Source of the DNA: an uncultured Peptococcaceae bacterium
GTDB taxonomy: Bacteria; Bacillota; Peptococcia; Peptococcales; Peptococcaceae
Length of the DNA: 64,000 bases
Direction: 5' to 3'
Assembly: GCA_937976375.1 (NCBI GenBank)
Contig: CALJRU010000030.1
Coordinates: forward strand, 94,467 to 158,466
Part shown: piece after piece, positions 12,121 through 40,389 of the stretch
Numbering within the stretch: position 1 is the first letter of the stretch
Layout of the letters: every line of letters begins with the position of its first letter
Translations under genes and position numbers: made by a program
The notes under the pieces: generated by a model
What the model was told of the DNA's origin: nothing
The model's database searches: none
Seen by the model: the letters and a program-made list of their open reading frames with translations, nothing else

Positions 12121-12423
12121 ATGAATATCGATCCTAATACCGTTGCGACTTTTGCCCGCCTTATGAAACAAACCGCAAGTAATGGTGTGGATGCATCAGC
12201 ACCCGCCGAAGTCGTGCCTTTAACGCTAACGGGCATTAAACCGATTAAATGGCGAAAAGGTGTCGAGTTGCCGTTACCGTCATCTTGTGTGGTACTCCCT
12301 CGTGGATTGGGATTTGATGCAGCCGATGTGGGTAAAACCTATCTGTTTCTGCAAGCAAGAAAAGGGAAACGGTTTTTCTTTATGTGTGAAAGCGGGGTGC
12401 ATAGTATTGGCGATAACACCTAA
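12121..12423 (+). CDS. Small baseplate-associated protein (XkdR-like, putative)
   Basis: About 100 aa using the ATG at 12121. The ORF-track start at 12055 lies inside the upstream gene. Confidence 0.3.
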   Translation: MNIDPNTVATFARLMKQTASNGVDASAPAEVVPLTLTGIKPIKWRKGVELPLPSSCVVLPRGLGFDAADVGKTYLFLQARKGKRFFFMCESGVHSIGDNT

Positions 12424-12835
12424 GATTGCATCGAATTTTGACACCGGTCTTTTTATTGCCGACGCTGAAAAAGAATCGCAGCCCACTTTGACCTGGGGCT
12501 TTGAGCTTGACGGCAATCGATGCTATGGCAAGAAAGATAAAGTCGATGCAATTATTCAATCTATCTTTTGTATTCTTGGCACAGAAAAAGGTGCCTATAT
12601 TATCTATCCAGCGTCATATGGCCTTCAAATGGATGATCTATACGGTAAACCCGCCCCTTACATGTATGCTGTACTGTGTGATCGTATTAGAGAAGCACTA
12701 TTAATGGATGACCGGATTATGGCGGTCGATGGGTTTTCCTATCAGGCTTCAGGTGACGTCATGACAATTCGGTTTAGCGTCCATATAGGCTATTCTGACG
12801 AGGATATCATTTCGGGGGTGCTATATGTTCGATGA
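12407..12835 (+). CDS. Baseplate protein (XkdS-like, putative)
   Basis: About 142 aa. Start uncertain: TTG at 12407 or GTG at 12386. Precedes the baseplate J gene. Confidence 0.35.
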   Translation: MAITPKIASNFDTGLFIADAEKESQPTLTWGFELDGNRCYGKKDKVDAIIQSIFCILGTEKGAYIIYPASYGLQMDDLYGKPAPYMYAVLCDRIREALLMDDRIMAVDGFSYQASGDVMTIRFSVHIGYSDEDIISGVLYVR

Positions 12836-13928
12836 TATTACACAAAGCTCAATATTGAATGACTTACTCAGCCGTGTGGATGATTCTATGGACAAACGAG
12901 AATCCTCCGTGATCTATGCCGCATGCTCGAGTGTTTCTGTCGATTTTTTGCAGGAACATGTAAATTTAAGTTATGTCGATGATCAGGCGCACGCTGATAC
13001 GGCCGATAGAACGCACTTAGTTATTATCGCCAAAGAGCAAGCAATTGCGCCAAAAACGGCTACCAGCACAATTGTGCGTGGAAAATTTAACATTGCGGTG
13101 CCGCAAGGAACGAGATTTTCAGCACTTAATACGCCATACAACTTCTACACTGTGGAGCCTTGCACACAAAACGAAGATGATGGATTTTTTTATGCTCGAC
13201 TGCAGTGCGAACAGGCTGGTGACTTGCCTGATGAAAGCTACGTGGGGCTCATAACGCCTATCGATGTGTCTGGTAGGGTCACTGAGATAGAAGGACTGGA
13301 AACGGCTGAAATCGACGAAATCATCCAGCGTGGGGAGGATGATGAAGATACTGAAGAATTCCGTGAACGCTATTTTACTGAAACCCAATGGGAGCACTAT
13401 GGGGGTAACATTGCAGACTACGAAAATATGTGTGCCAACATAAGTGGTATTGGCGATGTAAAAGTGATTCCTGTGTGGGCCGGTGGTGGTACCGTAAAAC
13501 TGGTATTGGTGGATTCCAAAAACTTGCCGCCGTCTGAAGAATTTGTTGCAAGTGTAAAAGAAATAATCGACCCTGTTGAATACGAGGGCCTGGGTTACGG
13601 TAAGGCTCCAATCGACCATACAGTGACGGTGGTGGCTGCAGGAAAAACCACAGTTGACGTTGTTATGACACTTACATATGAGGACGGGCAGAACTGGTCG
13701 CTCATCGGTGACGGTATCAAAAAAGCAGTTGAGGCGTATTTTGATGAAACGCGAAAAGAGTGGAAAGAGAGCAACGGTCTAACTGTGCGAATAGCACACA
13801 TTGAAAGCGCTGTGCTTGATGTTCCCGGTGTAGTCGATGTGACCGGCACAACTCTAAACGGTGCCTCAGAAAATGTTGTTGTGGGTCCGTATGACGTACC
13901 TGTTTTAGGGACGGTGAGCGAAGCATGA
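12825..13928 (+). CDS. Baseplate J-like protein (XkdT-like)
   Basis: 367 aa at the expected position in a PBSX-like tail module. Confidence 0.55.
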   Translation: MFDDITQSSILNDLLSRVDDSMDKRESSVIYAACSSVSVDFLQEHVNLSYVDDQAHADTADRTHLVIIAKEQAIAPKTATSTIVRGKFNIAVPQGTRFSALNTPYNFYTVEPCTQNEDDGFFYARLQCEQAGDLPDESYVGLITPIDVSGRVTEIEGLETAEIDEIIQRGEDDEDTEEFRERYFTETQWEHYGGNIADYENMCANISGIGDVKVIPVWAGGGTVKLVLVDSKNLPPSEEFVASVKEIIDPVEYEGLGYGKAPIDHTVTVVAAGKTTVDVVMTLTYEDGQNWSLIGDGIKKAVEAYFDETRKEWKESNGLTVRIAHIESAVLDVPGVVDVTGTTLNGASENVVVGPYDVPVLGTVSEA

Positions 13929-14527
13929 TTGATTTTGAAAATTTACCAATTGATATAGCTGGTCGATGGCCTGAGTTTTTGCAGAATAAAAAAGAATTGC
14001 AAGCTGTAGCATATACGATCGAGGAAGAATTTAAAAAACTTCGAAAAAAGACAGATCGTGTCTATAGAAACCATTATGTTATGACTGCTGACGCAGATGG
14101 GCTGGCTCGTTTCGAGCGACTGCCAAACATCAACCTTAAACCGAGAGAAGACAGCACACTTGAAGATAGGCGTATGGCAATCCTGGCTAAAATGCAAACA
14201 CGACTGCCGTACACTAAGCGTAGATTAAAGAAGCTATTAACAGCACTGCTCGGTGAAGGTATGTTTGATCTTGATATTCGGACATCAGAATACATGGTAT
14301 ATGTAACTGTGGAGCTAAAGCGAAAAAACCAGATTAACGCTATCGCCGATCTGGTGCGCCGTGCAATTCCGGCGAATATGGACTATAAAATCCAGGTGCG
14401 TTATAACCAGTATTATATGCTTACAAAGTTTACGTACGAAGAACTCAAAGGATACACGTATCAACAGCTTAAAGAAGATCCTAGGATTAAAGAAATTTAC
14501 CTTGAAAGAGGTGGCGTATTAATATGA
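13925..14527 (+). CDS. Phage tail protein (XkdU/YmfQ-like)
   Basis: 200 aa after baseplate J; size and order as in PBSX-like elements. Confidence 0.45.
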   Translation: MIDFENLPIDIAGRWPEFLQNKKELQAVAYTIEEEFKKLRKKTDRVYRNHYVMTADADGLARFERLPNINLKPREDSTLEDRRMAILAKMQTRLPYTKRRLKKLLTALLGEGMFDLDIRTSEYMVYVTVELKRKNQINAIADLVRRAIPANMDYKIQVRYNQYYMLTKFTYEELKGYTYQQLKEDPRIKEIYLERGGVLI

Positions 14528-14886
14528 CCGAAACAAAATTATTAGGGCTGCCTATTCTTGCAGCGGATGGTACTGATTTTGTAGACATACCAGAATTGTG
14601 GAATGATGGCACAGACAAGCTTGAGAAGGCTGTCGCTGATATAACCTATCTTATGGATAACTATGGTTATACATGGTCAATGAGCGAAGCGGATAACGGT
14701 GCTCTCACGATCACGGTTACGCTTGGCGAGGATTGTCCGGTATCGGCAAGCATGACGGCGGTTATCGCAGAAGACGAAAACGGCGATACAACGGTTGACG
14801 TGACAACTGTGATCGACGGCGTAACAAGTAAATCAAGCCACACAATCAATGATAATGGTGGCGAAGGAGGCGTAGTAAATGGCTGA
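14524..14886 (+). CDS. Tail fibre-associated small protein (putative)
   Basis: 120 aa, overlaps the downstream fibre gene. Confidence 0.3.
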   Translation: MTETKLLGLPILAADGTDFVDIPELWNDGTDKLEKAVADITYLMDNYGYTWSMSEADNGALTITVTLGEDCPVSASMTAVIAEDENGDTTVDVTTVIDGVTSKSSHTINDNGGEGGVVNG

Positions 14887-15766
14887 TCCAATTACCTGGG
14901 GATTGATTAACCTTGTCAAAAAAGGTGTTAAGGGCGTGCAGACAACGCTGGATGGTTTACCGAATTCATTTGAATCCAATTTTTTAGAAATAAAAAATGC
15001 AATTTCTGATATTAATGGGGAAATAGATGATTTATCGTCTATTTTAAAAAATGTACAATATATCGTTTCCGATACAAATGCAGTTGTTGGTGATATTTAT
15101 TTAGGAAATCAATATAGCGAATGGATTAAAGATTTAGCGGAATCTGGTACAAATTCTTCTACCTATAAAGATTCTTCTAAGATGGACAAACTCATTGTTT
15201 ATGAACCAGCTATATTGAATACACAAATAGACGATTTTTTATTCAAGTATATTATTGATAATTCAAAGCCTGTTGGAAGTTTCTTTAAAACAAAATTAAA
15301 AGATTCAAGCGGAGATGTAGAATGGGATTCTTTAACCACAGTTGATGCTATTTGTAAAAACGCAACTGCATACGAAAAATTAGTTAATGATTCGCCATCT
15401 TATTCTGTTTTGATTGAGGGCGGTCAATTTTGCACAATTTATAAAAATTATACCGTTACGGAATCTCTTACTCTTAATTCTTCTATAGCAAAAACTATAC
15501 TTAATGCAAATTCTACTGGTAAAAAGTATCAGGGTTCAGAAGATTATTGTTATTATACTGGTTACATTCACGGTTTGTATTTTGTGAATAATTTTAGTAG
15601 CCGTAAGACGATATATGTAAAAAGCCCTTCTAATAGTGAAATTCCAATAGAAGTACCTTTTTATAACCCAAATAAAATTCATCCAATAACAAAGTTTTCA
15701 TCTTATATAAGATCTAATGCGTTGAAGGATTATGATATTTATATTAAAGGGATATTCTGTGAATAA
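14879..15766 (+). CDS. Tail fibre / receptor-binding protein (putative); strongly AT-rich body
   Basis: 295 aa. GC drops to roughly 30% between about 14950 and 15760, against ~50% around it. It is the last tail gene before the lysis cassette. Confidence 0.45.
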   Translation: MADPITWGLINLVKKGVKGVQTTLDGLPNSFESNFLEIKNAISDINGEIDDLSSILKNVQYIVSDTNAVVGDIYLGNQYSEWIKDLAESGTNSSTYKDSSKMDKLIVYEPAILNTQIDDFLFKYIIDNSKPVGSFFKTKLKDSSGDVEWDSLTTVDAICKNATAYEKLVNDSPSYSVLIEGGQFCTIYKNYTVTESLTLNSSIAKTILNANSTGKKYQGSEDYCYYTGYIHGLYFVNNFSSRKTIYVKSPSNSEIPIEVPFYNPNKIHPITKFSSYIRSNALKDYDIYIKGIFCE

Positions 15767-15786
15767 CATGACGGAGACGATGAATA

Positions 15787-16002
15787 ATGAAACTACATGA
15801 AAAACTTGATAAAACACTTGAAGATCAACAATTAATGAAAGCTCAGATTGAATCCATGCAAACCCAAGTAAACGCCATGCAGAAACAGAGCACAACGACA
15901 GGTGAACAGGTCGCTGAGATGTACGCCGTTCAGGCAGGCGATGTGGTCGTTAAATCTGAGCTAGATGCAGCATATCGTGAGGGGGTCAACAGTTATGAGT
16001 AA
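15787..16002 (+). CDS. Small phage protein (XkdX-like, putative)
   Basis: 71 aa, charged and helical. Confidence 0.3.
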   Translation: MKLHEKLDKTLEDQQLMKAQIESMQTQVNAMQKQSTTTGEQVAEMYAVQAGDVVVKSELDAAYREGVNSYE

Positions 16003-16498
16003 CACGATCTATACCGACGCTATGCGCGCCAAAGGGGCCGCCGATGCAGCGGATTTCCAGCAGAGATCCACCGAGATGGATGGGACGGCAATGTACGCGG
16101 AAGAGGAAAAGATTCCGGATTTCGCAGAAGCTGTCAAGGTTAAAAATATGCTGGAAAGACCATGGGGGCAGGATAACGGCTTTATTTGTCGTTCTAATGT
16201 TGGACATGTTGTGCGACTGATCCAACCATATGATAGTGACATTTATACTCAGGAACCAGAAGATGCGGCATTGGCAGCCCATTGGCGTTTTGTGTATTCG
16301 ACTGATCCACTCAAGGCTAAGCCTTTTCTGGACAGTGAGACGAACATGTCCGAAAGCTATTATCGCATGGATGAATGTTGCACTTGGGAGGGACATGTGT
16401 GGAGATCGAATTTGGCTACAAATGTGTACTCGCCGACGGCATATCCAGCAGGATGGACAGACCTTGGTACAATCGAGGACGTCATGGGGGCAGAATAG
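15995..16498 (+). CDS. Hypothetical phage protein
   Basis: 168 aa from the ATG at 15995 (RBS GAGGGGG). Lies between the tail and lysis modules. Confidence 0.35.
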   Translation: MSNTIYTDAMRAKGAADAADFQQRSTEMDGTAMYAEEEKIPDFAEAVKVKNMLERPWGQDNGFICRSNVGHVVRLIQPYDSDIYTQEPEDAALAAHWRFVYSTDPLKAKPFLDSETNMSESYYRMDECCTWEGHVWRSNLATNVYSPTAYPAGWTDLGTIEDVMGAE

Positions 16499-16508
16499 GA
16501 GGTGTTGC

Positions 16509-16820
16509 ATGACGCAACAGCTGCTTATTAGTAGCATTATCAGCTACTTTGTGCCTCTTGTTTTAGGTGGTGTCATCGGTGTATTGGCGCATAGGCTGGG
16601 AAATAACAAGCGACAAGATGCGATGCTGCTGGCGTTAGGGCGTTATCGGCTACTGGCAGAGTGTGAGAGCATTCTTGCACAAGGTTACATCACTCCGAGC
16701 CAGTACGAAATGATAACGGATCTTTACGAAGCATATGCTGGTCTTGGGGGAAATGGTGTTGGTAAGGCTTTGTATACCCGAACTACGAAATTAAAAATTA
16801 TGGAAATGGAGAGTGAATGA
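16509..16820 (+). CDS. Small membrane protein, possible holin-like or XhlA-like lysis accessory
   Basis: 104 aa with one N-terminal TM (SSIISYFVPLVLGGVIGVLA). Directly upstream of the holin. The ORF-track frame 16230..16820 has a spurious N-terminal extension. Confidence 0.35.
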   Translation: MTQQLLISSIISYFVPLVLGGVIGVLAHRLGNNKRQDAMLLALGRYRLLAECESILAQGYITPSQYEMITDLYEAYAGLGGNGVGKALYTRTTKLKIMEMESE

Positions 16821-17089
16821 AGATGAAAATTAATGTTCCGGTACGATTTAAGAACCCTTGGTTTTGGGTTGGCGTTGTATCCATTGCGCTGACAGCGATT
16901 GGGCTTGACCCATCCACACTGACTTCGTGGGAAGCGGTGAAGGACAGCGTCATGGCTGTTTTGTCCAACCCGTTCCAACTTGGGACGATGGCATTAGCTG
17001 TTTTGGCAGTATTTGTAGATCCAACGACTGCTGGCTTTGGCGACTCACAGCAGGCGATGACATATACAGTACCTAGAAAGGGGGAGTAA
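16817..17089 (+). CDS. Holin (phi LC3 / LL-H-like family)
   Basis: 90 aa. N-terminus MKMKINVPVRFKNPWFWVGVVSIALTAIG matches the MKINWKVRLKNK...W-type holin signature. Two TMs. Immediately precedes the endolysin. Confidence 0.6.
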   Translation: MKMKINVPVRFKNPWFWVGVVSIALTAIGLDPSTLTSWEAVKDSVMAVLSNPFQLGTMALAVLAVFVDPTTAGFGDSQQAMTYTVPRKGE

Positions 17090-17091
17090 GA

Positions 17092-17784
17092 TTGAGTTAC
17101 GAATATATCACAGACTATGATGCCGTATCCTATATGCCTGGCCGCATGTATCATGATATCAACTATAACGTAGACAAAATCGTGATCCACCACTGGGGAG
17201 CAGATGGCCAGACTTTTGATGATGTCGTTGCATGGTTTTGCAATCCTAGCTGCACCACTTCGGCTCATTATGTCGCGGAAGCTGGCAAGGTCGCTTGCTT
17301 GGTAAATCTTGGCGATACTGCTTATCATGCAGGGGACTGGGGTGCAAACCTTACAAGTATCGGTATTGAGTGTAGGCCAGAAATGAGTGCCGCAGACTTA
17401 GAGACAGTATGCGAGCTGGTGGCATACATTTTTAGCGTCTATGGACCACTGCCGATCTACGGACATAAAGATTTTAGTGCTACAAGATGCCCGTATAGGT
17501 ACTACACGCAATTAGATCACATCTATAACAGAGCCATGGAAATATACAACGGTAATGAACAGGGGGATACTGATATGACGAAAGAAGAAGTACAGGCAAT
17601 TGTTAAAGAAATGCAGAAAACCTATGATACACTGGCAGAATGCCCGACATTTGCGCAACCAACTGTGCAGAAATTGATTAATAAAGGGCTATTAGTTGGT
17701 GGAGAAGGTGGCAAGTTAGATTTGACGTATGATTTGTGTAGAATGCTGGTAGTGAATGACCGTGCTGGCATTTACGGAGAATAA
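17092..17784 (+). CDS. Endolysin, N-acetylmuramoyl-L-alanine amidase (Amidase_2/PGRP fold)
   Basis: 230 aa. IVIHHWGADGQT...AHYVAEAGKV...AYHAGDW...IGIECRPE...GHKDFSATRCP are Amidase_2 zinc-site motifs. Confidence 0.8.
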   Translation: MSYEYITDYDAVSYMPGRMYHDINYNVDKIVIHHWGADGQTFDDVVAWFCNPSCTTSAHYVAEAGKVACLVNLGDTAYHAGDWGANLTSIGIECRPEMSAADLETVCELVAYIFSVYGPLPIYGHKDFSATRCPYRYYTQLDHIYNRAMEIYNGNEQGDTDMTKEEVQAIVKEMQKTYDTLAECPTFAQPTVQKLINKGLLVGGEGGKLDLTYDLCRMLVVNDRAGIYGE

Positions 17785-17986: not shown

Positions 17987-18074
17987 CGGAGAGAAGGGGA
18001 TTCGAACCCCTGATACGGTTCCCCGTATACACGATTTCCAGTCGTGCTCCTTCAGCCAAACTCGGACATCTCTC
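17987..18074 (-). tRNA. tRNA-Ser (anticodon GGA), long variable arm
   Basis: The reverse complement folds as GGAGAGA acceptor, anticodon loop CUGGAAA, long extra arm, T arm GGGGTTCGAATCCCC, 3' TCTCTCC-G. 88 nt. Confidence 0.8.
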
Positions 18075-18240
18075 CTCACTCAGCGAATATAATTTTATCA
18101 AAAGGAGGGGGGATTTGTCAATCCTTAATTCGATTTCTTTTCAATTTTTTTGCGATTTTTTTACGTTGCGAAGGTGTTGCGGTGCTGTTGCGTGTATTTG
18201 CTGTGCAATTCTGTTATAGTTGAAGCCAAGGAGGTGAGGC

Positions 18241-25537: not shown

Positions 25538-25803
25538 GCCGCACATTCATCTCTGAAATGATCTCCCAGGCGGTAACACATCAGCCAGCTCGAGCCAGGC
25601 GCTCCCGTGGCACATGCGCGGGTCTACTTAGTGCTGCTTCCTTCCGGACCTGACACGGTTCATAGGTGCGCATTGCACAGGACCCAGCTGTCAACACCGC
25701 TTAATGCGGCCAGACCCTAAAATCACACCCCTCGGATGAACATCGATCCTGCTGTAGCGGATTGCAGGTTACAGGGCACCGCTAACTCCCCATCTAGTAC
25801 GGC
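25538..25803 (-). ncRNA. ffs: Signal recognition particle RNA, long Bacillus-type (scRNA with Alu domain)
   Basis: The reverse complement contains GGTCCGGAAGGAAGCAGC (domain IV) and a 5' segment GTTAGCGGTGCCCTGTAACCTGCAATCCGCTACAGCAGG. Both are nearly identical to B. subtilis scRNA from memory. 5'/3' ends pair (GCCGTAC/GTGCGGC). Confidence 0.8.
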
Positions 25804-25808
25804 CCATC

Positions 25809-25840
25809 TATTATACCACTCTCTGCGTGCAAAAGACAAG
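25809..25840 (-). promoter_or_regulatory. Promoter of SRP RNA (TTGTCT-N18-TGgTATAAT)
   Basis: Extended -10 TGGTATAAT and -35-like TTGTCT, read on the minus strand. Confidence 0.55.
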
Positions 25841-25851
25841 TTATTTATTAG

Positions 25852-25886
25852 TAACAAAAAAGCGCTTCGGAATGTTCCGAAGCGCA
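25852..25886 (-). terminator. Terminator of the tRNA-Glu gene
   Basis: GCGCTTCGGAACATTCCGAAGCGC followed by a T-run on the minus strand. Confidence 0.75.
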
Positions 25887-25960
25887 TAGCCCGTACGGGA
25901 TTCGAACCCGTGAATACCAGCATGAGGGGCTGGGGAGTTAAACCACTTCTCAAACGGGCC
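25887..25960 (-). tRNA. tRNA-Glu-like, anticodon CUC with C at position 33
   Basis: The reverse complement GGCCCGTTTGAGAAGTGGTTTAACTCCCCAGCCCCTCATGCTGGTATTCACGGGTTCGAATCCCGTACGGGCTA shares acceptor and T arm with B. subtilis tRNA-Glu. Anticodon stem CCAGC/GCTGG, loop CCCTCAT. Confidence 0.6.
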
Positions 25961-26001
25961 AGAGAATCATTGTAGAGATTAAAACAAAACCTACAAAAAA
26001 T

Positions 26002-26030
26002 ATCTTACAACTTTGATCTGGCCTTGTCAA
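26002..26030 (-). promoter_or_regulatory. Promoter for tRNA-Glu (TTGACA-N17-TAAGAT)
   Basis: Read on the minus strand, about 40 nt upstream of the tRNA 5' end. Confidence 0.55.
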
Positions 26031-28751: not shown

Positions 28752-30269
28752 TCACTCTCGCAATGAGATGCCATCAACAGTGACATCGAACATCAGTGAT
28801 CGAGGTTGGATAGAAGAAAATGGCGAAAATTCAGAGTAGTAATCGCGGCTGAGGCTATAGGATTCTGCCGACATGGCAGGATATTGGAGAAGCTCTTCCT
28901 GGTGAATGTACGTTGCTTGGCTGTTGTAAAATTGGTTACCCTCGAGAGGAGTGAACGAATAAATGATGTAGCCGCGATAATTTTCTCCTTGACGAGGGAA
29001 AGAGAAGTTGGCGAAAATAAGATCATATGGCTCGATGATTGTGAAAATAGGGTCGACTTTTGTACGGGTTTCAATGGAATAATAAGGTGCTGAAAAATGT
29101 TCTCCATTGTTGTCGTAGAAGATACGGCCAGTGACTTCGCTGGCTAAGAGGGCGCTTTGCGGTGTTTGTCCATAAGCAGGATTTAATTGAATGGTATCGG
29201 TTCCTTTGAAACCAGGATTGGTGAGCCAGTGAAAATAGTGGAAAAGCACCAGGCGTGGCTGTTCGCCAGGTATCAGAACGACGATATTGGTCATATCAAT
29301 GCTGTGTTTCTCATGAATAAGAACGCCAGAATCATATTCTTTTGTATCGGAATTGAGAAGCACCTGCGTGGCGCCTTCGCACGCCGCAATGTCTTCGGCA
29401 GATAGATCGTTCAAGATGTATTCAGGGAAACCAAGGTCGATCAGATGATGCTTTGTTTCTTCAATGTTTGGTGTGAGTGTATTCTCTTTTGTGCTCCATT
29501 CCATGGAATAATTATTGAAGAAGAGATAGCCGCAGGTGCTGCCAACGAGAAGAAGGGCAACAAGGATCAAGGTGAAGGATCGGTTTGAAATCTGCACTGG
29601 TGCTGGCTGAAGAACGTAGCCAAGATTGTCCAGCGCTTTAAAGGTGCGGGAAATGATCCAGAGAATGAGGATAAAAATGAAAATCAATACAACAAGAATC
29701 TGCCAAGAATTGAAATAGAAGTTACTTTTAAGTTGCAGAAAGACCATGGCATTAGGTACTAGACTCCATGCCAGCAGTGCCAATACACCAAGCGCTTTTG
29801 AACGAAGACCCATTTTCTTTTGAATGTTTCGGAGCCCGCGCCAGAAGCAAAACAGAGAAAGCGCTATAAAGAGGGCATTAAGGAATAGCGCGAATAATGT
29901 GAAGGCCTCTGAAAGTGGTGGAAGTTCAATAATGGTGGTGTTTAAAATCAGTTTGGCGAATAAATAGATCGCATGGAACACTTCAAGAATGTAGCAGAAG
30001 CCAAACCAGCGATTTTCATGCTGCAAGGCACGAAATCCAAGCAGCACCAGGATTTGACCAATGGCTGGGAGAATAAAATCAAGCCCTATGAAGCCAATGG
30101 TAAAAGTATAGAGAAAATACCCAATAAGAATGCGGTTTAATGCCGTTTTTCCAGGAACTGTTTGCGCGACGATGTCGTCTGGCGGCAAGTCCGCCACACT
30201 GCGCCGCAACATGGTCTCGAAATCCTGGTCGTTTTCGAAGGTGTGTCGAGAATCAGTCATCATGGTCAC
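28752..30269 (-). CDS. Polytopic membrane protein co-transcribed with an ECF sigma factor (putative anti-sigma factor) with a ~270 aa extracytoplasmic C-terminal domain
   Basis: 505 aa. Start overlaps the sigma gene by 17 nt. Short N-terminal cytoplasmic segment, then about 6 TMs, then a soluble C-terminal domain. Confidence 0.4.
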   Translation of the reverse strand: MTMMTDSRHTFENDQDFETMLRRSVADLPPDDIVAQTVPGKTALNRILIGYFLYTFTIGFIGLDFILPAIGQILVLLGFRALQHENRWFGFCYILEVFHAIYLFAKLILNTTIIELPPLSEAFTLFALFLNALFIALSLFCFWRGLRNIQKKMGLRSKALGVLALLAWSLVPNAMVFLQLKSNFYFNSWQILVVLIFIFILILWIISRTFKALDNLGYVLQPAPVQISNRSFTLILVALLLVGSTCGYLFFNNYSMEWSTKENTLTPNIEETKHHLIDLGFPEYILNDLSAEDIAACEGATQVLLNSDTKEYDSGVLIHEKHSIDMTNIVVLIPGEQPRLVLFHYFHWLTNPGFKGTDTIQLNPAYGQTPQSALLASEVTGRIFYDNNGEHFSAPYYSIETRTKVDPIFTIIEPYDLIFANFSFPRQGENYRGYIIYSFTPLEGNQFYNSQATYIHQEELLQYPAMSAESYSLSRDYYSEFSPFSSIQPRSLMFDVTVDGISLRE

Positions 30270-30795
30270 CTCCCAACAGCTTTTGTAAAGTTTTTCTTAA
30301 ACGGTAAAGCCGGCCTTCGACGGCACGTTCTGTAATCCCTAGTTCGGCGGCGATTTGAGCGGTCGACTGCAAGTAATAGTATTTTCTATAAAACAAGAGA
30401 CGATCGCGGGAGGAAAGCCGGTTCAATGCTGCCTCTAGGGCTTTTTGCTGCTCCTGCAGCAAAATTTTTTCCTCTGGCGTTGGTTCCGATGACGGGAGAT
30501 TTTCGGGAAGATCTCCTGTACTGTTGTGGCGCGCAAGCGCACGAACGTGGTTTAATGCCGTGTTTCTGGTGATGGCTGTGAGCCAGGCTTTCCAACTGCC
30601 TTTTTTAGGGTTGTACTGATCAATATTGTTCCAAACACGCATGATTACTTCTGCGAGACAGTCTTCCTGATCTTGTGGATTGTGCAGGATTGGTGCGATA
30701 ATATAGCGCATCAGTGGTTCGTAGTGCGTGGATAGGGCCGTCAGGCCATCTTCGCTTTTTTTCTGGAGCAATGCAATAATGTCCTGCTCTTTCAT
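30253..30795 (-). CDS. ECF-type RNA polymerase sigma-70 factor
   Basis: 180 aa. Region 2 and region 4 features (YEPLMRYI; LQSTAQIAAELGITERAVEGRLYRLRKTL). Confidence 0.75.
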   Translation of the reverse strand: MKEQDIIALLQKKSEDGLTALSTHYEPLMRYIIAPILHNPQDQEDCLAEVIMRVWNNIDQYNPKKGSWKAWLTAITRNTALNHVRALARHNSTGDLPENLPSSEPTPEEKILLQEQQKALEAALNRLSSRDRLLFYRKYYYLQSTAQIAAELGITERAVEGRLYRLRKTLQKLLGGDHDD

Positions 30796-32707: not shown

Positions 32708-34081
32708 GTGGTAAAAGCCAAAACGAGGTATGTTTGTCAAGAGTGCGGTTATCAAACACCTAAATGGATGGGGCGTTGTCCCGATTGTGGGGCATGGAAC
32801 AGCCTTGTTGAAGAAGTGATGGCTCAGCCGCAGGAAAAGAAAGCCGGTCGCCCGCATCTGCAGCCTTTGGCTGGCGGCAGCAGTAAACCAGAATCGCTTT
32901 CAGCCATTCATAGTACAGCAGCCAATCGCGTGGATACAGGCATTCGAGAATTGAATCGCGTGCTTGGCGGCGGTTTGGTACCTGGTGAATTGGTGCTGCT
33001 GAGCGGTGATCCGGGAATTGGCAAGTCGACGCTGACCATGCAGCTGATGGATAAAATCGCAGGCAGCGGACAGGTGCTCTATGTTTCTGGCGAAGAATCA
33101 AAAGGGCAGATTCGCAATCGTGCTGAGCGACTTGGCGTGTCAAGTACACGGATTCATGTGATGACGGAAAACAATGTTGAAGTGTTGGATGCTGTTGTTC
33201 GCGGTCAGCATTGGGACCTTTTGATTATTGATTCCGTGCAGACTATTTTTGATCCGGCGGTGCAATCAGCGCCAGGCAGTGTTTCTCAGCTGCGTGCCGT
33301 AACAGCCGTCTGCATGGGTTGGGCAAAAGGCGTTGGGATTCCCACAGTGCTTATTGGTCATGTGACAAAAGATGGAACCGTGGCTGGACCGCGTGTGTTG
33401 GAACATATGGTGGATGCTGTGCTTCTTTTTGAAGGAGATCGTCAATCTCAGTATCGAGTGCTGCGTGGGCTGAAAAACCGTTTTGGCTCTATCAATGAGA
33501 TTGGCGTATTTGATATGACCGGCGAAGGCTTGGTTGAAGTGGGCGATGCTTCACGAGTGTTCCTCTCAGAGCGTGCGAGTGCGGTGAGCGGCGCTGTGGT
33601 AACAGCGCTTCTCGAAGGTTCGCGTCCCATTCTTGTGGAAATTCAAGCATTGGCAACGAAGTCTTTCTATGGACAGTCACGCTGCATGACAACGGGGATT
33701 AAATATGACCGTGTGTCGATGTTGATCGCTGTACTGGAAAAACGTGCCGGTTTACGGCTGGGCGACCAAGATGTATATTTGAATGTGGTGGGCGGTTTGC
33801 GTGTGGACGATCCTGCCTGCGACTTGGCAGTGGCCATGGCCATTGCATCTAGCTATTTGGATAAATGTATTGCGCCAGATATGCTGCTGTTGGGTGAGGT
33901 TGGCTTGACAGGCGAACTGCGCCAGGTCAATCAGCTGGAGCGGCGATTGCGCGAAGCGGCGCAAATGGGTTTCCGCAAAGCGATTGTGCCAAAGCAGAAA
34001 AAGACGTTGAAGATTCCGCAGATGGAAGTCATTGAACGATCGTTTATCAACGATGTCATAAATGAATGTTGGAGGGAGTAA
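32708..34081 (+). CDS. radA: DNA repair protein RadA/Sms
   Basis: GTG start after AAGGAGG. N-terminal Zn finger CQECG...CPDCG, Walker A GDPGIGKST, KNRFG motif, Lon-like C-terminal domain. Confidence 0.9.
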   Translation: MVKAKTRYVCQECGYQTPKWMGRCPDCGAWNSLVEEVMAQPQEKKAGRPHLQPLAGGSSKPESLSAIHSTAANRVDTGIRELNRVLGGGLVPGELVLLSGDPGIGKSTLTMQLMDKIAGSGQVLYVSGEESKGQIRNRAERLGVSSTRIHVMTENNVEVLDAVVRGQHWDLLIIDSVQTIFDPAVQSAPGSVSQLRAVTAVCMGWAKGVGIPTVLIGHVTKDGTVAGPRVLEHMVDAVLLFEGDRQSQYRVLRGLKNRFGSINEIGVFDMTGEGLVEVGDASRVFLSERASAVSGAVVTALLEGSRPILVEIQALATKSFYGQSRCMTTGIKYDRVSMLIAVLEKRAGLRLGDQDVYLNVVGGLRVDDPACDLAVAMAIASSYLDKCIAPDMLLLGEVGLTGELRQVNQLERRLREAAQMGFRKAIVPKQKKTLKIPQMEVIERSFINDVINECWRE

Positions 34082-34083
34082 AT

Positions 34084-35184
34084 ATGCAGCTTATTTCAAA
34101 TGAAACCAATGCATTGATGGATGTTCTCAAAAAAACTGCCCCCGGCACGGAACTGCGTGAAGGTCTGGACAATGTGCTGCGCGCCAATACGGGTGGGCTG
34201 ATCGTTATTGGTGATCCGGCGAAAATCAAGCCTTTGACCAAGGGTGGTTTTGAAATTGATACCGATTATTCTCCAGCCCATCTTTATGAATTGGCGAAAA
34301 TGGATGGTGCCATTTTAATTTCACCGGATGTGAAACGTATCATCAGCGCCAACACCCATCTGATGCCTGATCCAGATGTACCATCCTCTGAAACAGGTAT
34401 TCGCCACCGTACAGCCGAACAGACAGCGCGCCAAACAGGGGCTTTGGTGATCTGCATTTCGCAGCGCCGTCGCGTCATTACGTTGTATAAGGGCACGTCT
34501 AAGTACGTATTAAAAGATGTAAGCGTATTGTTAAATACTGCTAACCAAGCGCTCGGAACTTTGGAAAAATATAAAGACGTTCTTGAAGAAGCCGTGCTGC
34601 GTTTGAGCGTGCAGGAATTTGACAACGTTGTGACATTGCCAGATGTGCTTACGGTTATTCAGCGTGCAGAGCTCTTCAAACGTGTTGAGATGATGCTGCG
34701 CGTGTATTCCACGGAGCTTGGTGATGAAAGCCAATTGATTCGTATGCAGGCGGAAGAATTGAGCAGCAATGTTGAGACAGAGGAACGGTTGACCATACGT
34801 GATTATATGCTTCGGGATCCCGACAAGAGCGATAAAGAACTTTTGGAAGAGTATCTGCATCGCCTTGGCCGTTTTGACAGTGAGCAGCTGTGGGATCTGG
34901 ACTTGATTGCGCGTTCGCTAAATTTGAATGAATTTCATGATAAGGACAAGCGTGTCTTTTTGGAATGCCGCGGCTATCGTATGCTGCATAAGATTCCGCG
35001 CTTGCCAAATTCTGTTATTGACAATATGGTGGAAGCGTTTGGCGATTTCCAGTCCATTTTATTGGCAAGCAATGATGAACTGGATGCAGTTGAAGGTATC
35101 GGGCCGGCACGTGTCAGCCAGATTACTCTTGGGCTGGAACGTATCCGCAGTCAAATCATTACTGACAGCAACTGGGTACAGTGA
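34084..35184 (+). CDS. disA: DNA integrity scanning protein DisA (diadenylate cyclase)
   Basis: DAC-domain motifs DGAILIS and RHRTAEQ. C-terminal HhH region. Follows radA as in Bacillus. Confidence 0.85.
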   Translation: MQLISNETNALMDVLKKTAPGTELREGLDNVLRANTGGLIVIGDPAKIKPLTKGGFEIDTDYSPAHLYELAKMDGAILISPDVKRIISANTHLMPDPDVPSSETGIRHRTAEQTARQTGALVICISQRRRVITLYKGTSKYVLKDVSVLLNTANQALGTLEKYKDVLEEAVLRLSVQEFDNVVTLPDVLTVIQRAELFKRVEMMLRVYSTELGDESQLIRMQAEELSSNVETEERLTIRDYMLRDPDKSDKELLEEYLHRLGRFDSEQLWDLDLIARSLNLNEFHDKDKRVFLECRGYRMLHKIPRLPNSVIDNMVEAFGDFQSILLASNDELDAVEGIGPARVSQITLGLERIRSQIITDSNWVQ

Positions 35185-35211
35185 TGATGCTTTACAGCAA
35201 CTTGAAAGAAG

Positions 35212-36378
35212 GTGAGAATCATGAGAACTTCAGAAAAGATCATTGTGAATATCGTGCGATTGGTGATGTTATGCGTGGGATTGGCCATTGGTTATATTGT
35301 TAGCTTTCCGCTGTATCATCTTCTGCGTTCCATGTCGGTGAACTTTCTTCAAAATACTTCCTATGGCTTTCCCATCGTGTGTGGCGTCTTGATGGTTTTG
35401 TGTGGACTTATAGGATTTGTTATTGGGAAACCATTGGCGGCATTGATTGTACGAGGCACCACATTGATGGAACAACGGCTCAAACAGATGCCGTTTCCAG
35501 CGTTGATTTCCAGTACCGTTGGTTTGATCGTTGGTCTTTTAATTGCAGCATTGTTATCGAGCACTGTAAAAGCATTGCCAATCGTTGGCAGTTACATGCC
35601 AGTGGTGCTGAGTGTCATTTTCGGCTATTTGGGCATTTCGGTTGGTTATCGTTGGCGTGAAACAGTCGATGGTTTTTTGGGAGCGCTGCGACGCTCACCG
35701 AAGCGCAGCCGTCGTGAAGCCAAGGATTGCAAAGACCCAAAAAGCTCGGAAGAGGCATTGGCGACCTTGTCTTATAAGACCATTGTTCATCCAAAAGTAT
35801 TGGATACCAGTGTGATTATTGATGGGCGTATTGTAGAAATCTGCAAAGCAGGTTTTTTGGAAGGCCCGCTGATCATCACAAACTTTGTTTTGGATGAACT
35901 GCGTCATATTGCTGACAGCAGCGATTCTCTAAAACGAGTGCGTGGACGGCGCGGACTGGATATTCTGAACGATTTGCGCAAAACTGATGTGGAAGTCATC
36001 AATATGAATATTGACTATGAAGAAATTCCAGAAGTTGACGCAAAGTTGGTGCAGTTGGCCAAAGATATCAATGGGTATGTGGTCACCAATGACTTCAACT
36101 TGAATAAGGTAGCGTCATTCCAGAAAGTAAAAACCCTTAACGTCAATGAATTGGCAGGTGCCATTAAGACGGTGGTGCTGCCAGGTGAAAGCATGCGCGT
36201 GGAAGTGGTTGCCCGTGGGAAAGAGAATGATCAGGGCGTTGGTTATCTGGACGATGGCACCATGGTTGTCGTTGAAAACGGGAAACATGTTATTGGAAAG
36301 ACTGTGGACACAGTCGTCACATCTGTGATTCAGACCAATGCCGGTCGTATGATTTTCGTGCGTTTGGAACAAAATTAA
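35212..36378 (+). CDS. yacL: PIN/TRAM-domain membrane protein YacL-like
   Basis: 388 aa. N-terminal TMs, a PIN-like central domain and a C-terminal TRAM-like beta domain. Conserved position between disA and ispD. Confidence 0.7.
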   Translation: MRIMRTSEKIIVNIVRLVMLCVGLAIGYIVSFPLYHLLRSMSVNFLQNTSYGFPIVCGVLMVLCGLIGFVIGKPLAALIVRGTTLMEQRLKQMPFPALISSTVGLIVGLLIAALLSSTVKALPIVGSYMPVVLSVIFGYLGISVGYRWRETVDGFLGALRRSPKRSRREAKDCKDPKSSEEALATLSYKTIVHPKVLDTSVIIDGRIVEICKAGFLEGPLIITNFVLDELRHIADSSDSLKRVRGRRGLDILNDLRKTDVEVINMNIDYEEIPEVDAKLVQLAKDINGYVVTNDFNLNKVASFQKVKTLNVNELAGAIKTVVLPGESMRVEVVARGKENDQGVGYLDDGTMVVVENGKHVIGKTVDTVVTSVIQTNAGRMIFVRLEQN

Positions 36379-36493
36379 AGATTTGTGAGCGAGGCACTAC
36401 AGAGATTGCCTCGCTCTTTTTTAATTCCTTCTGTAGTTTGATAGAAAATATGCTATAATGGGGAGCAATGAAATGGACAAGGAGGCAGCGGCG

Positions 36494-37186
36494 ATGATCG
36501 GTGCAGTGGTTTTGGCTGGCGGGAAGGGCAAGCGCATGCAGGCTGGCATGAATAAACAATATCTCACTGTTGAGGGACGCAGTGTGCTGAGCTGCGCCAT
36601 TGAGAGCATGGCGGCAGTGGCAGAAGCGCTCATTGTCGTAGCGGCAAAAGGCGAAGAAGACAAGGCGTGGAAGGCCGTCTCTGAAAGTGGCGTGGATAAA
36701 GCACGCGTACAAGTGGTGGAAGGCGGCAAAGAACGGCAGGATTCGGTGCGGCACGCTTTGGCGGCCATGCCGGAGACTTGGGAAAAGGTGCTCATTCACG
36801 ATGGTGCGCGTCCGTTTGTTCCCAAGGACATGCTTGAGCGCATTCTTGCGGCAACAGCGCCAGGCATTGGCGTGGTTCCAGGTCTTTCAGTCACAGATAC
36901 CATTAAGAGAATTGATGCATCTGGATTTATTATTGAGACGCCGCCGCGGTCTCAGCTTCGCGCTGCGCAGACACCGCAGTGCTTTATGGCGCAGGAGATT
37001 TGCGCGCTGCATTTGGCAGTGGCAGACAGCGGCCAGATTTTCACGGATGATGCAGCCCTCTATGAATATGGCGGCAAACGGGTGCGCATGGTGGAAGGTG
37101 ATGCCATGAGCCGAAAATTAACCGTACCAGATGATATGTTATGGGCGATAGAAATGAAACATGCATGGGAGGCACAAAAACAATGA
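36494..37186 (+). CDS. ispD: 2-C-methyl-D-erythritol 4-phosphate cytidylyltransferase
   Basis: [15 protein letters not shown]... The ATG follows AAGGAGG. 230 aa. Confidence 0.85.
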
Positions 37187-37662
37187 GAGTTGGAATGGGC
37201 TATGATGTGCACCGATTGGTGGAAGAACGAAAATTGATTCTTGGCGGCGTAGAGATCCCTTATGAAAAAGGCTTGTTGGGGCACTCTGATGCAGACGTAC
37301 TGCTGCATGCCATCATGGATGCCATGCTGGGCGCAGCAGCAATGGGCGATATTGGTCAGCATTTTCCGGATACGGATCCAGCCTATAAAGGGGCTGACAG
37401 TATGGTGCTTTTATCGGCATGCCGGGAAAAGATTGCAAAAAAAGGGTATCGGGTACACAATGTGGATGCGTTGATTTGTGCCCAAGCCCCAAAGATGGCA
37501 CCACATATTGCCATCATGCGGGAAAATATTGCTGCAGCATTGGACGTGTCTGTCGATGCCATCAATGTCAAGGCAACGACCACGGAACGTTTGGGCTTTG
37601 TGGGCGATGGCTCTGGGATGAGTGCGTATGCTGTTTGCCTGTTGGAGGAAGCCCATGCATAA
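37183..37662 (+). CDS. ispF: 2-C-methyl-D-erythritol 2,4-cyclodiphosphate synthase
   Basis: [12 protein letters not shown]...[19 protein letters not shown] overlap with ispD. Confidence 0.85.
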
Positions 37663-38074
37663 GGCCTTGGATCTTTATGAAAAGAGCACAAATCATCCAG
37701 AACAGCTGCCGGCATTAACTTTGGCTTTTGTTGGAGACGCGGTGTATGAAATCTATGTACGGACGATGATGCTGCGTCGAAGCGTTAATGCACATGTTCT
37801 CAATAAACGTTGTGTACAGTTGGTCAACAATCGCACACAATCTGCGTTGTATGATTTGCTGGCGCCAGAACTGAATGACGTGGAGCAAGGCGTCTTGCAT
37901 CGTGGCCGCAACGCCAAAGGCATTGTACCAAAACATGCGAATACCCAGGATTACCGTCGTGCAACGGCTGTCGAAGCGCTTGTAGGCTATTGGTACCTGA
38001 TGGACAACGAGACAAGGCTGAAATGGGCATTTGACACTTTATGGGACATGACAGAAGGAGAAAATTGTGAGTAG
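37655..38074 (+). CDS. mrnC: Mini-ribonuclease 3 (Mini-III)
   Basis: [14 protein letters not shown] RNase III signature in a 139 aa protein at the Bacillus yazC position. Confidence 0.7.
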
Positions 38075-38897
38075 AGCCGATGAGATTTTTAAACAAAATA
38101 TTCGTCAGATTTTAGACAACGGTGTTTGGGACACCGATTATGAGGTGCGTCCACGTTGGAGCGATGGCACACCTGCGCATACCATTAAATGCTTCGGCAT
38201 TGTGAATCGTTACGATCTCAGTGAAGAGTTTCCAATTTTGACATTGCGCAAGACCAATTTACGCAACGCGGTGGATGAACTGCTGTGGATTTGGCAGAAA
38301 AAATCCAATCGTATTGAAGATCTGCATAGCCATATTTGGGACCAATGGGCTGGTGATGATGGTACCATAGGCAAAGCTTATGGCTATCAGCTGGGCATCA
38401 AACATGAATATAAAGAAGGTTGGTTTGATCAGGTGGATCGTGTGCTATATGACCTTAAGCACCAGCCAAACAGCCGACGCATTATGACCAACATCTATAA
38501 TCATCATGATTTACATGCGATGAATCTTTATCCATGTGCATACAGCATGACGTTTAATGTCAGCGGCAAGCGTTTAAATGCCATTCTCAATCAACGCAGC
38601 CAAGATATGCTGACTGCCAATAATTGGAACGTGGCACAGTATGCGGTGTTGGTACACATGATCGCACAAGTCAGCGGATTAGAAGCTGGCGAATTGGTGC
38701 ATGTGATAGCGGATGCACACATTTATGACCGTCATATGCCGATTGTTGAAGAGGTGATTGCTCATAAGGGGTATGATGCACCAGCGTTCGCACTCAACCC
38801 GAACATTACTGATTTCTATGATTTCACAGTAGAAGATGTTCAGCTCGATCATTATGAATATTGGCCATTAGAAGGGCGCATTCCCGTCGCAGAATGA
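38067..38897 (+). CDS. thyA: Thymidylate synthase
   Basis: 276 aa. GTG start after GAAGGAG. Conserved ThyA architecture with YQLGIKHE...; order thyA-dfrA. Confidence 0.8.
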   Translation: MSRADEIFKQNIRQILDNGVWDTDYEVRPRWSDGTPAHTIKCFGIVNRYDLSEEFPILTLRKTNLRNAVDELLWIWQKKSNRIEDLHSHIWDQWAGDDGTIGKAYGYQLGIKHEYKEGWFDQVDRVLYDLKHQPNSRRIMTNIYNHHDLHAMNLYPCAYSMTFNVSGKRLNAILNQRSQDMLTANNWNVAQYAVLVHMIAQVSGLEAGELVHVIADAHIYDRHMPIVEEVIAHKGYDAPAFALNPNITDFYDFTVEDVQLDHYEYWPLEGRIPVAE

Positions 38898-39128
38898 TCC
38901 TCACAGCGCACAGTTGATGTGCGCTGCTTTTTTATGCGTTTGCAAATCATGCGGTTTAAAATACAGCTTTTTGGTTTTATGCTGCAGAATGCCTGTGTTG
39001 GGTATTGTTGCTCCGTACTCTGTTGAGCAATGGAAGAAAATGTGGTATATTTTCTTAAGGCCCTACGTTCGGTAGAGTATGACATTTAAAAAATGAACGC
39101 CGAAAAGGCGTGATCAAAAGATAGAAAG

Positions 39129-39662
39129 TTGGATGAAACGATGGAATTTATCGTTGCAGTGGATGAAAATTGGGGGATTGGCAAAGATGGCGGCATGCTC
39201 GATCATTTGCCAAAAGATCTGGCTTTTTTTAAAAAGAAAACCAGCGGCCATGTCATCGTCATGGGACGTAAGACCTTGGAATCTTTTCCTGGCAGCCGGC
39301 CGCTGCCAAATCGGGTCAACATTGTCGTAACGTCGCAGTCGGATTACAAGGCTGCTGATGGTGTGGTATTGGTCCATTCTCTGGCTGAATTGGTGCAGCT
39401 ATTGAAAACAATGGATCGCGAAGATGTTTTTTTGGTTGGCGGAGCGACGTTGTACGCAACGCTTAAAGATTATTGCAGTGGCGGCTATGTGACCTATATT
39501 GGTCATGCTTATGACGGGGTACAGGCCTTCTTTCCAGACTTGGCTGCAGAGACGCACTGGCAGCTGCAGGAGACGCTGGCAGAGGATGAAGAACACGGCT
39601 ATACACTGCAGTTTTGTTATTATCGCAATCAGTCCCCACGATCATTGGAGGAATTCGTATGA
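39129..39662 (+). CDS. folA: Dihydrofolate reductase
   Basis: MEFIVAVDENWGIGKDGGMLDHLPKDLAFFKKKTSGHVIVMGRKTLES. The start may be the ATG at 39141. Confidence 0.8.
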   Translation: MDETMEFIVAVDENWGIGKDGGMLDHLPKDLAFFKKKTSGHVIVMGRKTLESFPGSRPLPNRVNIVVTSQSDYKAADGVVLVHSLAELVQLLKTMDREDVFLVGGATLYATLKDYCSGGYVTYIGHAYDGVQAFFPDLAAETHWQLQETLAEDEEHGYTLQFCYYRNQSPRSLEEFV

Positions 39663-40387
39663 GTGAGATTTACGGGCGCAATCCTGTTATTGAAGCGTTA
39701 AAAAGCGGCACAGAAATCAATCGTGTCTATATTGCCAAAGGTGCACAGCACAAGGCCATTGATGAGATTTATAAACTGGCACGTGCGGCGCAGGTACCAG
39801 TGCAGCAAGTGGAACGTCGCAAATTGGACAGCTTGTTCCCAGGGAAGAATCATCAGGGCGTGTATGCATCTGTTGCAGAAATGCAGTATGTGGAGTGGGA
39901 AGACATTCTCGCTCAGGCGCGCGAAAAAGGTGAGCCACCGCTGGTGCTGGTGTTGGATGAGATCGAAGATCCACATAATCTTGGCGCTATTCTGCGTAAT
40001 GCAGATGCTTTTGGTGTGCACGGTGTCATTATTCCAAAGCGGCGTTCTGTTAGTTTGACAGGCACTGTTGCAAAAGCTGCGGCTGGCGCGCTGCAGTATG
40101 TGCCAGTAGCGCGTGTGGCAAACATTGCGCAAACCTTAAAGGCCTTAAAAAAGGAAGGGCTGTGGGTTTGTGGAACAGCCATGGATGGGCAGAATATTTA
40201 TCAGGCTCCGCTTTCTGGTGCGCTGGCAATTGTGATTGGCAATGAAGGTCATGGCATGCGCCCGCTTGTTGCTCAGCAATGTGATTTTACAGTTGCCATT
40301 CCAATGAAAGGGCGTATCAATTCGCTGAATGCTTCCGTTGCTACTGGCATTGTGCTTTCAGAAGTTGAGCGTCGCCGGGAGGGTTAA
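39659..40387 (+). CDS. rlmB: 23S rRNA (guanosine-2'-O)-methyltransferase RlmB (TrmH/SpoU family)
   Basis: MSEIYGRNPVIEAL... with SpoU motifs. The ATG follows GGAGG and overlaps the folA stop (ATGA). Confidence 0.75.
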   Translation: MSEIYGRNPVIEALKSGTEINRVYIAKGAQHKAIDEIYKLARAAQVPVQQVERRKLDSLFPGKNHQGVYASVAEMQYVEWEDILAQAREKGEPPLVLVLDEIEDPHNLGAILRNADAFGVHGVIIPKRRSVSLTGTVAKAAAGALQYVPVARVANIAQTLKALKKEGLWVCGTAMDGQNIYQAPLSGALAIVIGNEGHGMRPLVAQQCDFTVAIPMKGRINSLNASVATGIVLSEVERRREG

Positions 40388-40389
40388 GC

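Follow-up and report, generated by a model that had tools for sequence, protein, structure and literature searches.

A tRNA-Glu(CUC) gene with cytidine at position 33 is conserved in a clade of gut 'Peptococcaceae'

The window (the whole stretch of 64,000 nucleotides that was analyzed, from an uncultured Peptococcaceae bacterium) contains a 74-nt gene for tRNA-Glu(CUC) on the minus strand at positions 25887–25960, which ARAGORN called from 25960 to 25887 as tRNA-Glu with anticodon ctc. The Rfam model RF00005 covered it end to end with 51 bits against a gathering score of 29, the lowest score among the window's tRNAs. The RNA reads GGCCCGU UU GAG(A) AGUGGUUUA (A)CUC C CCAGC CCCUCAU GCUGG UAUUC ACGGG UUCGAAU CCCGU ACGGGCU A, and its acceptor, anticodon and T arms are all formed in the MFE fold. 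The Rfam alignment gives a D stem of 3 bp (GAG/CUC) with A13 opposite A22, and the conserved tertiary nucleotides that we checked are in place, namely U8, G18G19 within the D loop AGUGGUUUA and the T loop UUCGAAU. C34-U35-C36 followed by A37 has the YUC-plus-A37 form of tRNA-Glu identity, and the acceptor end carries G1-U72 and discriminator A73. A sequence-only reading of this DNA had already proposed a tRNA-Glu with anticodon CUC, without naming the strand, and an acceptor and T arm of tRNA-Glu type. ARAGORN, Rfam and the fold bear out the first claim, and the second holds in that canonical tRNA-Glu(UUC) genes of Bacilli MAGs have the same acceptor 5′ strand (GGCCCGU) and the same T arm (ACGGGUUCGAAUCCCGU).

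With canonical Bacillota tRNA-Glu (UUC or CUC), the window tRNA shares the cloverleaf, the 3-bp D stem with A13/A22, G18G19, the T loop, A37 and, for the CUC isoacceptors, the anticodon, as well as the acceptor strand and T stem (ACGGG/CCCGU) of the UUC paralogues of Bacilli MAGs and a location among stable-RNA genes. It differs from them in having C33, in carrying G1-U72 rather than G2-U71 and in lacking an encoded CCA. The last trait is normal for this genome, because none of the window's nine tRNA genes encodes CCA. Nucleotide 47 is missing in Escherichia coli and Bacillus subtilis tRNA-Glu, leaving a 4-nt variable region. The 5-nt variable region found here (UAUUC) is a lineage trait, because the canonical UUC paralogues of the same backbone also have 5 nt (CAUUC). 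Alignment columns 1/73 and 2/72 always contain one G-U wobble among the first two acceptor pairs of this tRNA-Glu backbone, as G1-U72 with G2-C71 in the window clade and as G1-C72 with G2-U71 in other C33 lineages.

The anticodon loop, CCCUCAU, occupies positions 25922–25928 of the minus strand, with C32 at 25928, C33 at 25927, C34-U35-C36 at 25926–25924, A37 at 25923 and U38 at 25922. A 5-bp anticodon stem (CCAGC/GCUGG) closes this 7-nt loop in both the Rfam alignment and the MFE fold, and 14 distinct C33 sequences support the same loop. Position 33 is a uridine in all eight other tRNAs of the window; in this gene it is a cytidine, as it is in all 17 group-1 loci (the clade described below). 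The sequence-only reading had seen this cytidine and had called for alternative loop registers to be checked. That check was run, and no fold restores U33. Because compensatory changes across relatives keep all five anticodon-stem pairs, no other register yields U33, and we also rejected the shifted anticodons CCU and CCC, for which a Glu-type body would have to serve as Arg or Gly.

U33 is conserved in elongator tRNAs, and the U-turn matters for loop architecture and translocation; the exceptions given in reviews are only the eukaryotic initiator (C33) and Candida tRNA-Ser (G33) (PMC5041475, PMC11231383). The literature that we searched holds no specific description of a bacterial C33 tRNA-Glu, an absence that is no proof of novelty. 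The eukaryotic initiator tRNA-Met likewise has C33 in an otherwise normal 7-nt anticodon loop (PMC5041475), but it goes straight to the P site and takes no part in elongation at the A site, whereas the tRNA described here is a bacterial one with the body and anticodon of tRNA-Glu and lacks the features of an initiator.

Upstream of the gene lies a sigma-70-type promoter (26002–26030, minus strand), in which the −35 element TTGACA (26030–26025) and the −10 element TAAGAT (26007–26002) are separated by a 17-nt spacer and match the consensus at 10 of 12 positions. TTGACA and TAAGAT, TAATAT or TATTAT recur at fixed spacing in all group-1 loci despite diverging surroundings. The promoter is followed by a 5′ leader of ~41 nt (25961–26001, minus strand) with a hairpin at about 25996–25970 (GUAG..CUAC) that is found in every group-1 variant and that the window, L024, L032, L051, L065 and L085 all keep although their stem sequences differ. 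No shuffle folded as well as the leader hairpins of L032, L051 and L085 (z −3.0 to −6.2); that of the window is weak, at −4.4 kcal/mol. The leader hairpin may act in processing or stability. On the other side of the gene, an intrinsic terminator (25852–25885, minus strand) reads GCGCUUCGGA-ACAU-UCCGAAGCGC followed by UUUUUU. Its hairpin (25885–25862) has a 10-bp stem with 7 G-C pairs and is kept in the group-1 loci with loop and stem variation. The gene's own promoter and strong terminator, both of which had been proposed from the letters of the window, are thus recovered and recur in related species; by sequence comparison, the promoter, leader hairpin and terminator are conserved while the flanks diverge.

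The downstream neighbor is a gene for the large bacterial SRP RNA (25539–25802, minus strand; Rfam RF01854, 198 bits). It has a promoter separate from the tRNA gene (25810–25839, minus strand; TTGTCT-18-TATAAT with TG before the −10 element), which is also conserved in the group-1 loci. The tRNA gene stands alone, flanked by an ABC-transporter operon and the SRP RNA gene, and the order tRNA then SRP RNA is the same in all six loci that reach far enough (L024, L032, L051, L065, L085 and L114); the count covers six loci, the segment of L052 beginning right at the tRNA. Protein-coding neighbors within 12.2–40.9 kb comprise MarR, TauE, Crp, an arylsulfotransferase, a 2-hydroxyacid dehydrogenase, an ABC transporter with GntR and an ECF sigma factor. 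Further along, at 32708–40932, the order is radA-disA-PIN/TRAM-ispD-ispF-mini-RNase III-thyA-dfrA-SpoU methylase-YacP, which we take to resemble the radA..yacP region of B. subtilis, without gltX, cysE and cysS between ispF and mini-RNase III.

Two independent metagenome contigs (L001 and L005) match the tRNA and its flanks at every base, and the identical tRNA sequence occurs in many MAG and metagenome contigs. Because independent assemblies agree, we rejected a sequencing or assembly error as the source of C33. Our species scan used one genome per species and the pattern CCCTCA-N13-GGGTTCGAATCCC, which required a particular T-arm sequence; many of its matches were variable arms of tRNA-Ser (CCCUCAcaaGGGG) and were discarded. 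All seven species-level representatives of human-gut 'Peptococcaceae' MAGs carry the C33 tRNA (L024, L032, L051, L052, L065, L085 and L114; taxon names are the depositors' labels), as do 10 further metagenome contigs, so that C33 is present in 17/17 group-1 loci with no reversion within the clade. Among the seven species there are four distinct tRNA sequences with compensatory differences, such as CCAGC/GCUGG to CUAGC/GCUAG, and in L065 these changes extend to the acceptor and T stems. Across the 14 distinct C33 sequences, 99.6% of cells are paired and six pairs show compensatory changes, and C32-C33-C34-U35-C36-A37 is invariant (14/14). None of 500 shuffles reached the covariation score of this alignment, and slid controls fell to 17–39% paired. 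This pattern of sequence change indicates that the tRNA-Glu(CUC) gene is under purifying selection and that C33 is its fixed state.

To place the gene among its isoacceptors, we scanned metagenomes with the Glu-type D arm and C34 fixed and position 33 free, a design in which frequencies are approximate. Among the matches listed, 98 of 116 tRNA-Glu(CUC) genes have U33 and 18 have C33. C33 is thus the less common state of an isoacceptor that is ordinary in other respects, and the idea that it is universal in Bacillota tRNA-Glu(CUC) was rejected. The C33 sublineages are the window clade, about 20 species of Acholeplasmataceae MAGs, whose representatives keep an essentially identical C33 gene, and several Bacilli or other Bacillota MAGs together with environmental contigs. 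Some C33 sequences are only 2–3 nt away from U33 sequences among the matches listed, and rough neighbor joining with parsimony gives ~7 U/C changes at position 33 for these matches, on a tree of 74 nt that is weak. Nearest-neighbor distances and this rough parsimony disfavor a single origin, with the same weakness of a 74-nt tree, and suggest that C33 arose several times in Bacillota tRNA-Glu(CUC).

The state of position 33 varies with that of position 38. Among the matches listed, C33 occurs in 18 of 38 loci with a pyrimidine at position 38 and in 0 of 78 with A38 or, counted as distinct sequences, in 7/17 and 0/44, kinship being ignored in both counts. All C33 members of this D-arm set, among the matches listed, are C34 isoacceptors on UUC-type bodies with pyrimidine-38. 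Seven contigs (L054, L057, L070, L103, L165, L203 and L240) carry a canonical tRNA-Glu(UUC) with loop CUUUCAC and a near-identical CUC gene with loop CCCUCAC, and in sister lineages the loop of the CUC paralogue is CUCUCAC. From these paralogue pairs and the intermediate loop, the C33 form looks like a UUC-type body that gained C34 first and then C33.

The coding sequences of the window contain 263 GAG and 832 GAA codons (1,095 Glu codons in total). A GAG-only isoacceptor has work to do, because GAG makes up 24% of these codons, although it is the minor codon and a tRNA-Glu(UUC) could also cover it. GAG is used less than AAG or CAG within their synonymous pairs, and this low relative use would also fit a weak GAG decoder, which counts against the reading that we prefer below. 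Four-base pairing of C33 with a G following GAG gave no signal in the window: in this small sample, G follows 32% of GAG codons, compared with 36% overall and 38% after GAA. The sequence-only reading had raised altered decoding as a possibility, and in this comparison, the sole test run, the data do not speak for it. ARAGORN finds no tRNA-Glu(UUC) in the window, and neither a tRNA-Glu(UUC) nor a second CUC gene is present in any group-1 locus examined. The place of tRNA-Glu(CUC) in the Glu tRNA set is therefore taken from other lineages, since the window holds no tRNA-Glu(UUC). As for the company that the gene keeps, a tRNA-Val(UAC) lies 13 nt downstream of the C33 orthologue in L065, C33 genes stand within tRNA clusters in L103, L054, L057 and L070, and some other C33 genes are placed in tRNA or 5S rRNA clusters.

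We favor, with a probability of roughly 0.7, the reading that these sequences encode a functional, GAG-specific elongator of ordinary translation, whose C33 is tolerated or mildly beneficial in its loop context. From its sequence and conservation, the tRNA would be transcribed alone from its sigma-70-type promoter with the hairpin leader and would end at its own terminator. RNase P would then cut off the leader, the 3′ trailer would be trimmed and CCA would be added enzymatically, because no tRNA gene of the window encodes it. Charging by GluRS and delivery by EF-Tu are expected because the acceptor stem, the 3-bp D stem and the T arm are those of canonical tRNA-Glu; a GluRS gene was not found among the window's ORFs at 12.2–40.9 kb. 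C34 would confine the tRNA to reading GAG. The earlier suggestion of a specialized tRNA survives in this one sense, as a C34 isoacceptor restricted to GAG, and no other specialization is supported.

On a UUC-type body, C34 would have strengthened the codon–anticodon helix, and C33 probably weakens the U-turn there, with an effect that may be neutral or mildly 'tuning'. [quoted passage not shown] A weakened U-turn would fit this idea and the position-38 dependence of C33. The likeness is that a loop position outside the anticodon covaries with anticodon strength and with position 38; the difference is that published tuning concerns positions 32, 38 and the stem, not 33, so that a tuning role for C33 would be an extension by analogy. 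In its overall nature, the gene is of a known kind with a rare, evolutionarily stable variant feature, and it represents no new kind of system.

In elongator tRNAs, U33 is regarded as invariant, and a chromosomal bacterial tRNA-Glu(CUC) with C33 that, judging from genome sequences, is kept across a gut-bacterial family runs against that view. So do the repeated appearance of C33 in Bacillota tRNA-Glu(CUC), confined among the matches listed to pyrimidine-38 bodies, and the C33 tRNAs of phage arrays. For annotation, it follows that C33 tRNA genes should not be dismissed as pseudogenes. The natural U33/C33 pairs that differ by one base could be used to measure the part of U33 in decoding and to set tuning against nuclease evasion. 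A bolder version, which we hold only tentatively and think doubtful, is that C33 is no tolerated defect but a functional, recurrently selected state of GAG-specific tRNA-Glu. Here, C33 would re-tune a UUC-type body (C32, pyrimidine-38) once it had been turned into a CUC isoacceptor, either through a weaker U-turn that offsets the stronger helix or through a block on a U33-dependent nuclease or modification enzyme. If this were true, the 'universal' U33 would be an evolutionary tuning knob in bacterial elongators, paralleling the frequent C33 of phage arrays.

The second of these routes can also be taken as an explanation by itself, in which C33 is adaptive because it protects tRNA-Glu(CUC) from an anticodon-loop tRNase (a toxin, a colicin-like enzyme or a phage-defense nuclease) while the role in translation is kept. 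For phage tRNAs, varied anticodon loops have been proposed as a means of evading the tRNases of the host (van den Berg et al. 2023; PMC10264068). The phage and array tRNAs resemble the window tRNA in deviating in the loop outside the anticodon, and C33 tRNA-Glu(CUC) is common in viral contigs and tRNA arrays. In 242 loci, we counted 24 non-U33 tRNAs other than Glu(CUC), all of them in arrays bar one dubious call, and 11 of the 18 IMG/VR loci that matched the scan pattern carry a tRNA-Glu(CUC) of loop CCCUCAA together with C33 tRNAs for Val, Asn, Lys, Ala, Pro, His or Arg. The repeated origin of C33 in Bacillota is likewise compatible with such protection. The phage and array versions, however, mostly have A38 and unrelated bodies, whereas the window gene is single and chromosomal, lies outside any prophage, phage or multi-tRNA array and keeps its synteny with the SRP RNA across the seven species. 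The loop departs from the consensus at C33, but no tRNase was identified within 12.2–40.9 kb; canonical UUC paralogues in the same genomes retain U33; and protection from a nuclease does not predict that C33 should be restricted to pyrimidine-38 bodies. To our knowledge, no bacterial tRNase targets tRNA-Glu(CUC) at U33. We regard nuclease evasion as unlikely.

We consider it quite improbable that C33 reflects drift in a redundant, weakly selected gene, in which tRNA-Glu(UUC) reads GAG and a slightly deleterious change from U33 to C became fixed in a tRNA that contributes little. GAG is the minor Glu codon (24%), C33 forms coexist with canonical UUC paralogues in other lineages, U33 and C33 flip among close relatives, and no other tRNA of the window scores lower with Rfam, all of which would suit a redundant gene. 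Against this reading, the tRNA keeps all its other structural features, with compensatory changes in the stems, and its promoter, leader and terminator are conserved across seven species despite diverging flanks. C33 stands without reversion in 17/17 group-1 loci, and ~20 species representatives of Acholeplasmataceae keep an essentially identical C33 gene. Pure drift does not predict the strong dependence of C33 on position 38.

The sequence-only reading had also offered a non-translational role, with glutamyl-tRNA as a substrate. Here, C33 would keep Glu-tRNA off the ribosome for glutamyl-tRNA reductase (tetrapyrrole synthesis), LanB-type dehydration or another transferase, which we judge very unlikely. 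Since U33 is held essential for loop architecture and translocation, a C33 tRNA might be a poor ribosome substrate, which also counts against the elongator reading, and its U-turn should be weakened (PMC5041475, PMC11231383). The gene also has its own promoter and terminator, as a dedicated donor might. Dedicated or uncoupling tRNAs do exist in other systems, among them the cell-wall tRNA-Gly of Staphylococcus and a tRNA-Glu of Acidithiobacillus. In such tRNAs, among them the Staphylococcus tRNA-Gly and the pseudo-tRNA 'tRNA-Other' of Bacillus cereus, the T or D loops are altered in ways that reduce use by EF-Tu or the ribosome, or the tRNA is linked to the pathway that it serves. The window tRNA resembles them in that its gene encodes an additional isoacceptor, departs from the consensus in one feature and forms a transcription unit of its own, but the departure is confined to position 33, and within 12.2–40.9 kb it is linked to no gene of such a pathway. 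The T arm, G18G19 of the D loop and the acceptor stem, with the determinants for EF-Tu and the ribosome, are the same as in the canonical tRNA-Glu(UUC) paralogues and thus give no hint that EF-Tu is avoided. In the Pfam content of 12.2–40.9 kb (~13 kb on one side and ~15 kb on the other), we found no Glu-tRNA-dependent enzyme (LanB, GluTR, Fem-type or similar). Ordinary elongator tRNAs accompany the orthologues, as in the tRNA-Val tandem of L065 and the tRNA clusters, and the same C33 form occurs in Acholeplasmataceae MAGs, which represent small-genome Mollicutes-type bacteria. The proposed non-translational role is thus not borne out.

Post-transcriptional conversion of C33, by C-to-U deamination or another modification, would give the mature tRNA a normal U-turn and reconcile the gene with the universality of U33, and C-to-U editing at anticodon-loop or core positions of tRNAs exists in other organisms, but we know of no bacterial C33 deaminase, no deaminase gene is linked to the tRNA locus (12.2–40.9 kb) and the detour is unnecessary when close relatives simply encode U33, so that we give this explanation almost no weight.

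MAGs from several phyla, as well as viral contigs, contain dense arrays (13–34 tRNAs within a few kb) in which many tRNAs have C33. The identities of these C33 tRNAs are Val, Asn, Lys, Ala, Pro, His, Arg, Gly, Leu and Glu, and the C33-rich arrays come from seven genome loci (L072, L046, L034, L090, L062, L071 and L028) and seven IMG/VR loci (L243, L245, L247, L251, L254, L256 and L257). In the array of L072, 10 of 30 tRNAs have C33. Outside arrays, C33 was seen in the 242 loci only in tRNA-Glu(CUC), one dubious call aside.

Several further observations concern the rest of the window. Prophage-like genes at 12260–17781, which encode parts of a contractile tail (sheath initiator, Baseplate_J and Mu Gp48) as well as an amidase, end beside a tRNA-Ser(GGA) at 17987–18075, which is the likely integration site of these genes. 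A prophage origin of tRNA-Glu(CUC) itself was rejected, as the prophage-like genes lie at 12.2–17.8 kb by the tRNA-Ser and the synteny of tRNA and SRP RNA is conserved. A divergent second tRNA-Thr(UGU) is located at 1026–1098. At 28752–30269, on the minus strand, a predicted membrane protein of 505 aa with no Pfam match is encoded directly downstream of, and overlapping, the ECF sigma-factor gene (30253–30795), and it may be an anti-sigma or partner protein of that sigma factor. Five independent metagenome contigs that carry the dehydrogenase gene end inside the SRP RNA gene, four of them at 25776–25783 (L002, L004, L006 and L007; 344–352 nt past the dehydrogenase gene) and the fifth, L003, near 25656 (224 nt past it). 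These ends probably mark a branch in the assembly graph, at SRP RNA sequence shared by co-occurring species.
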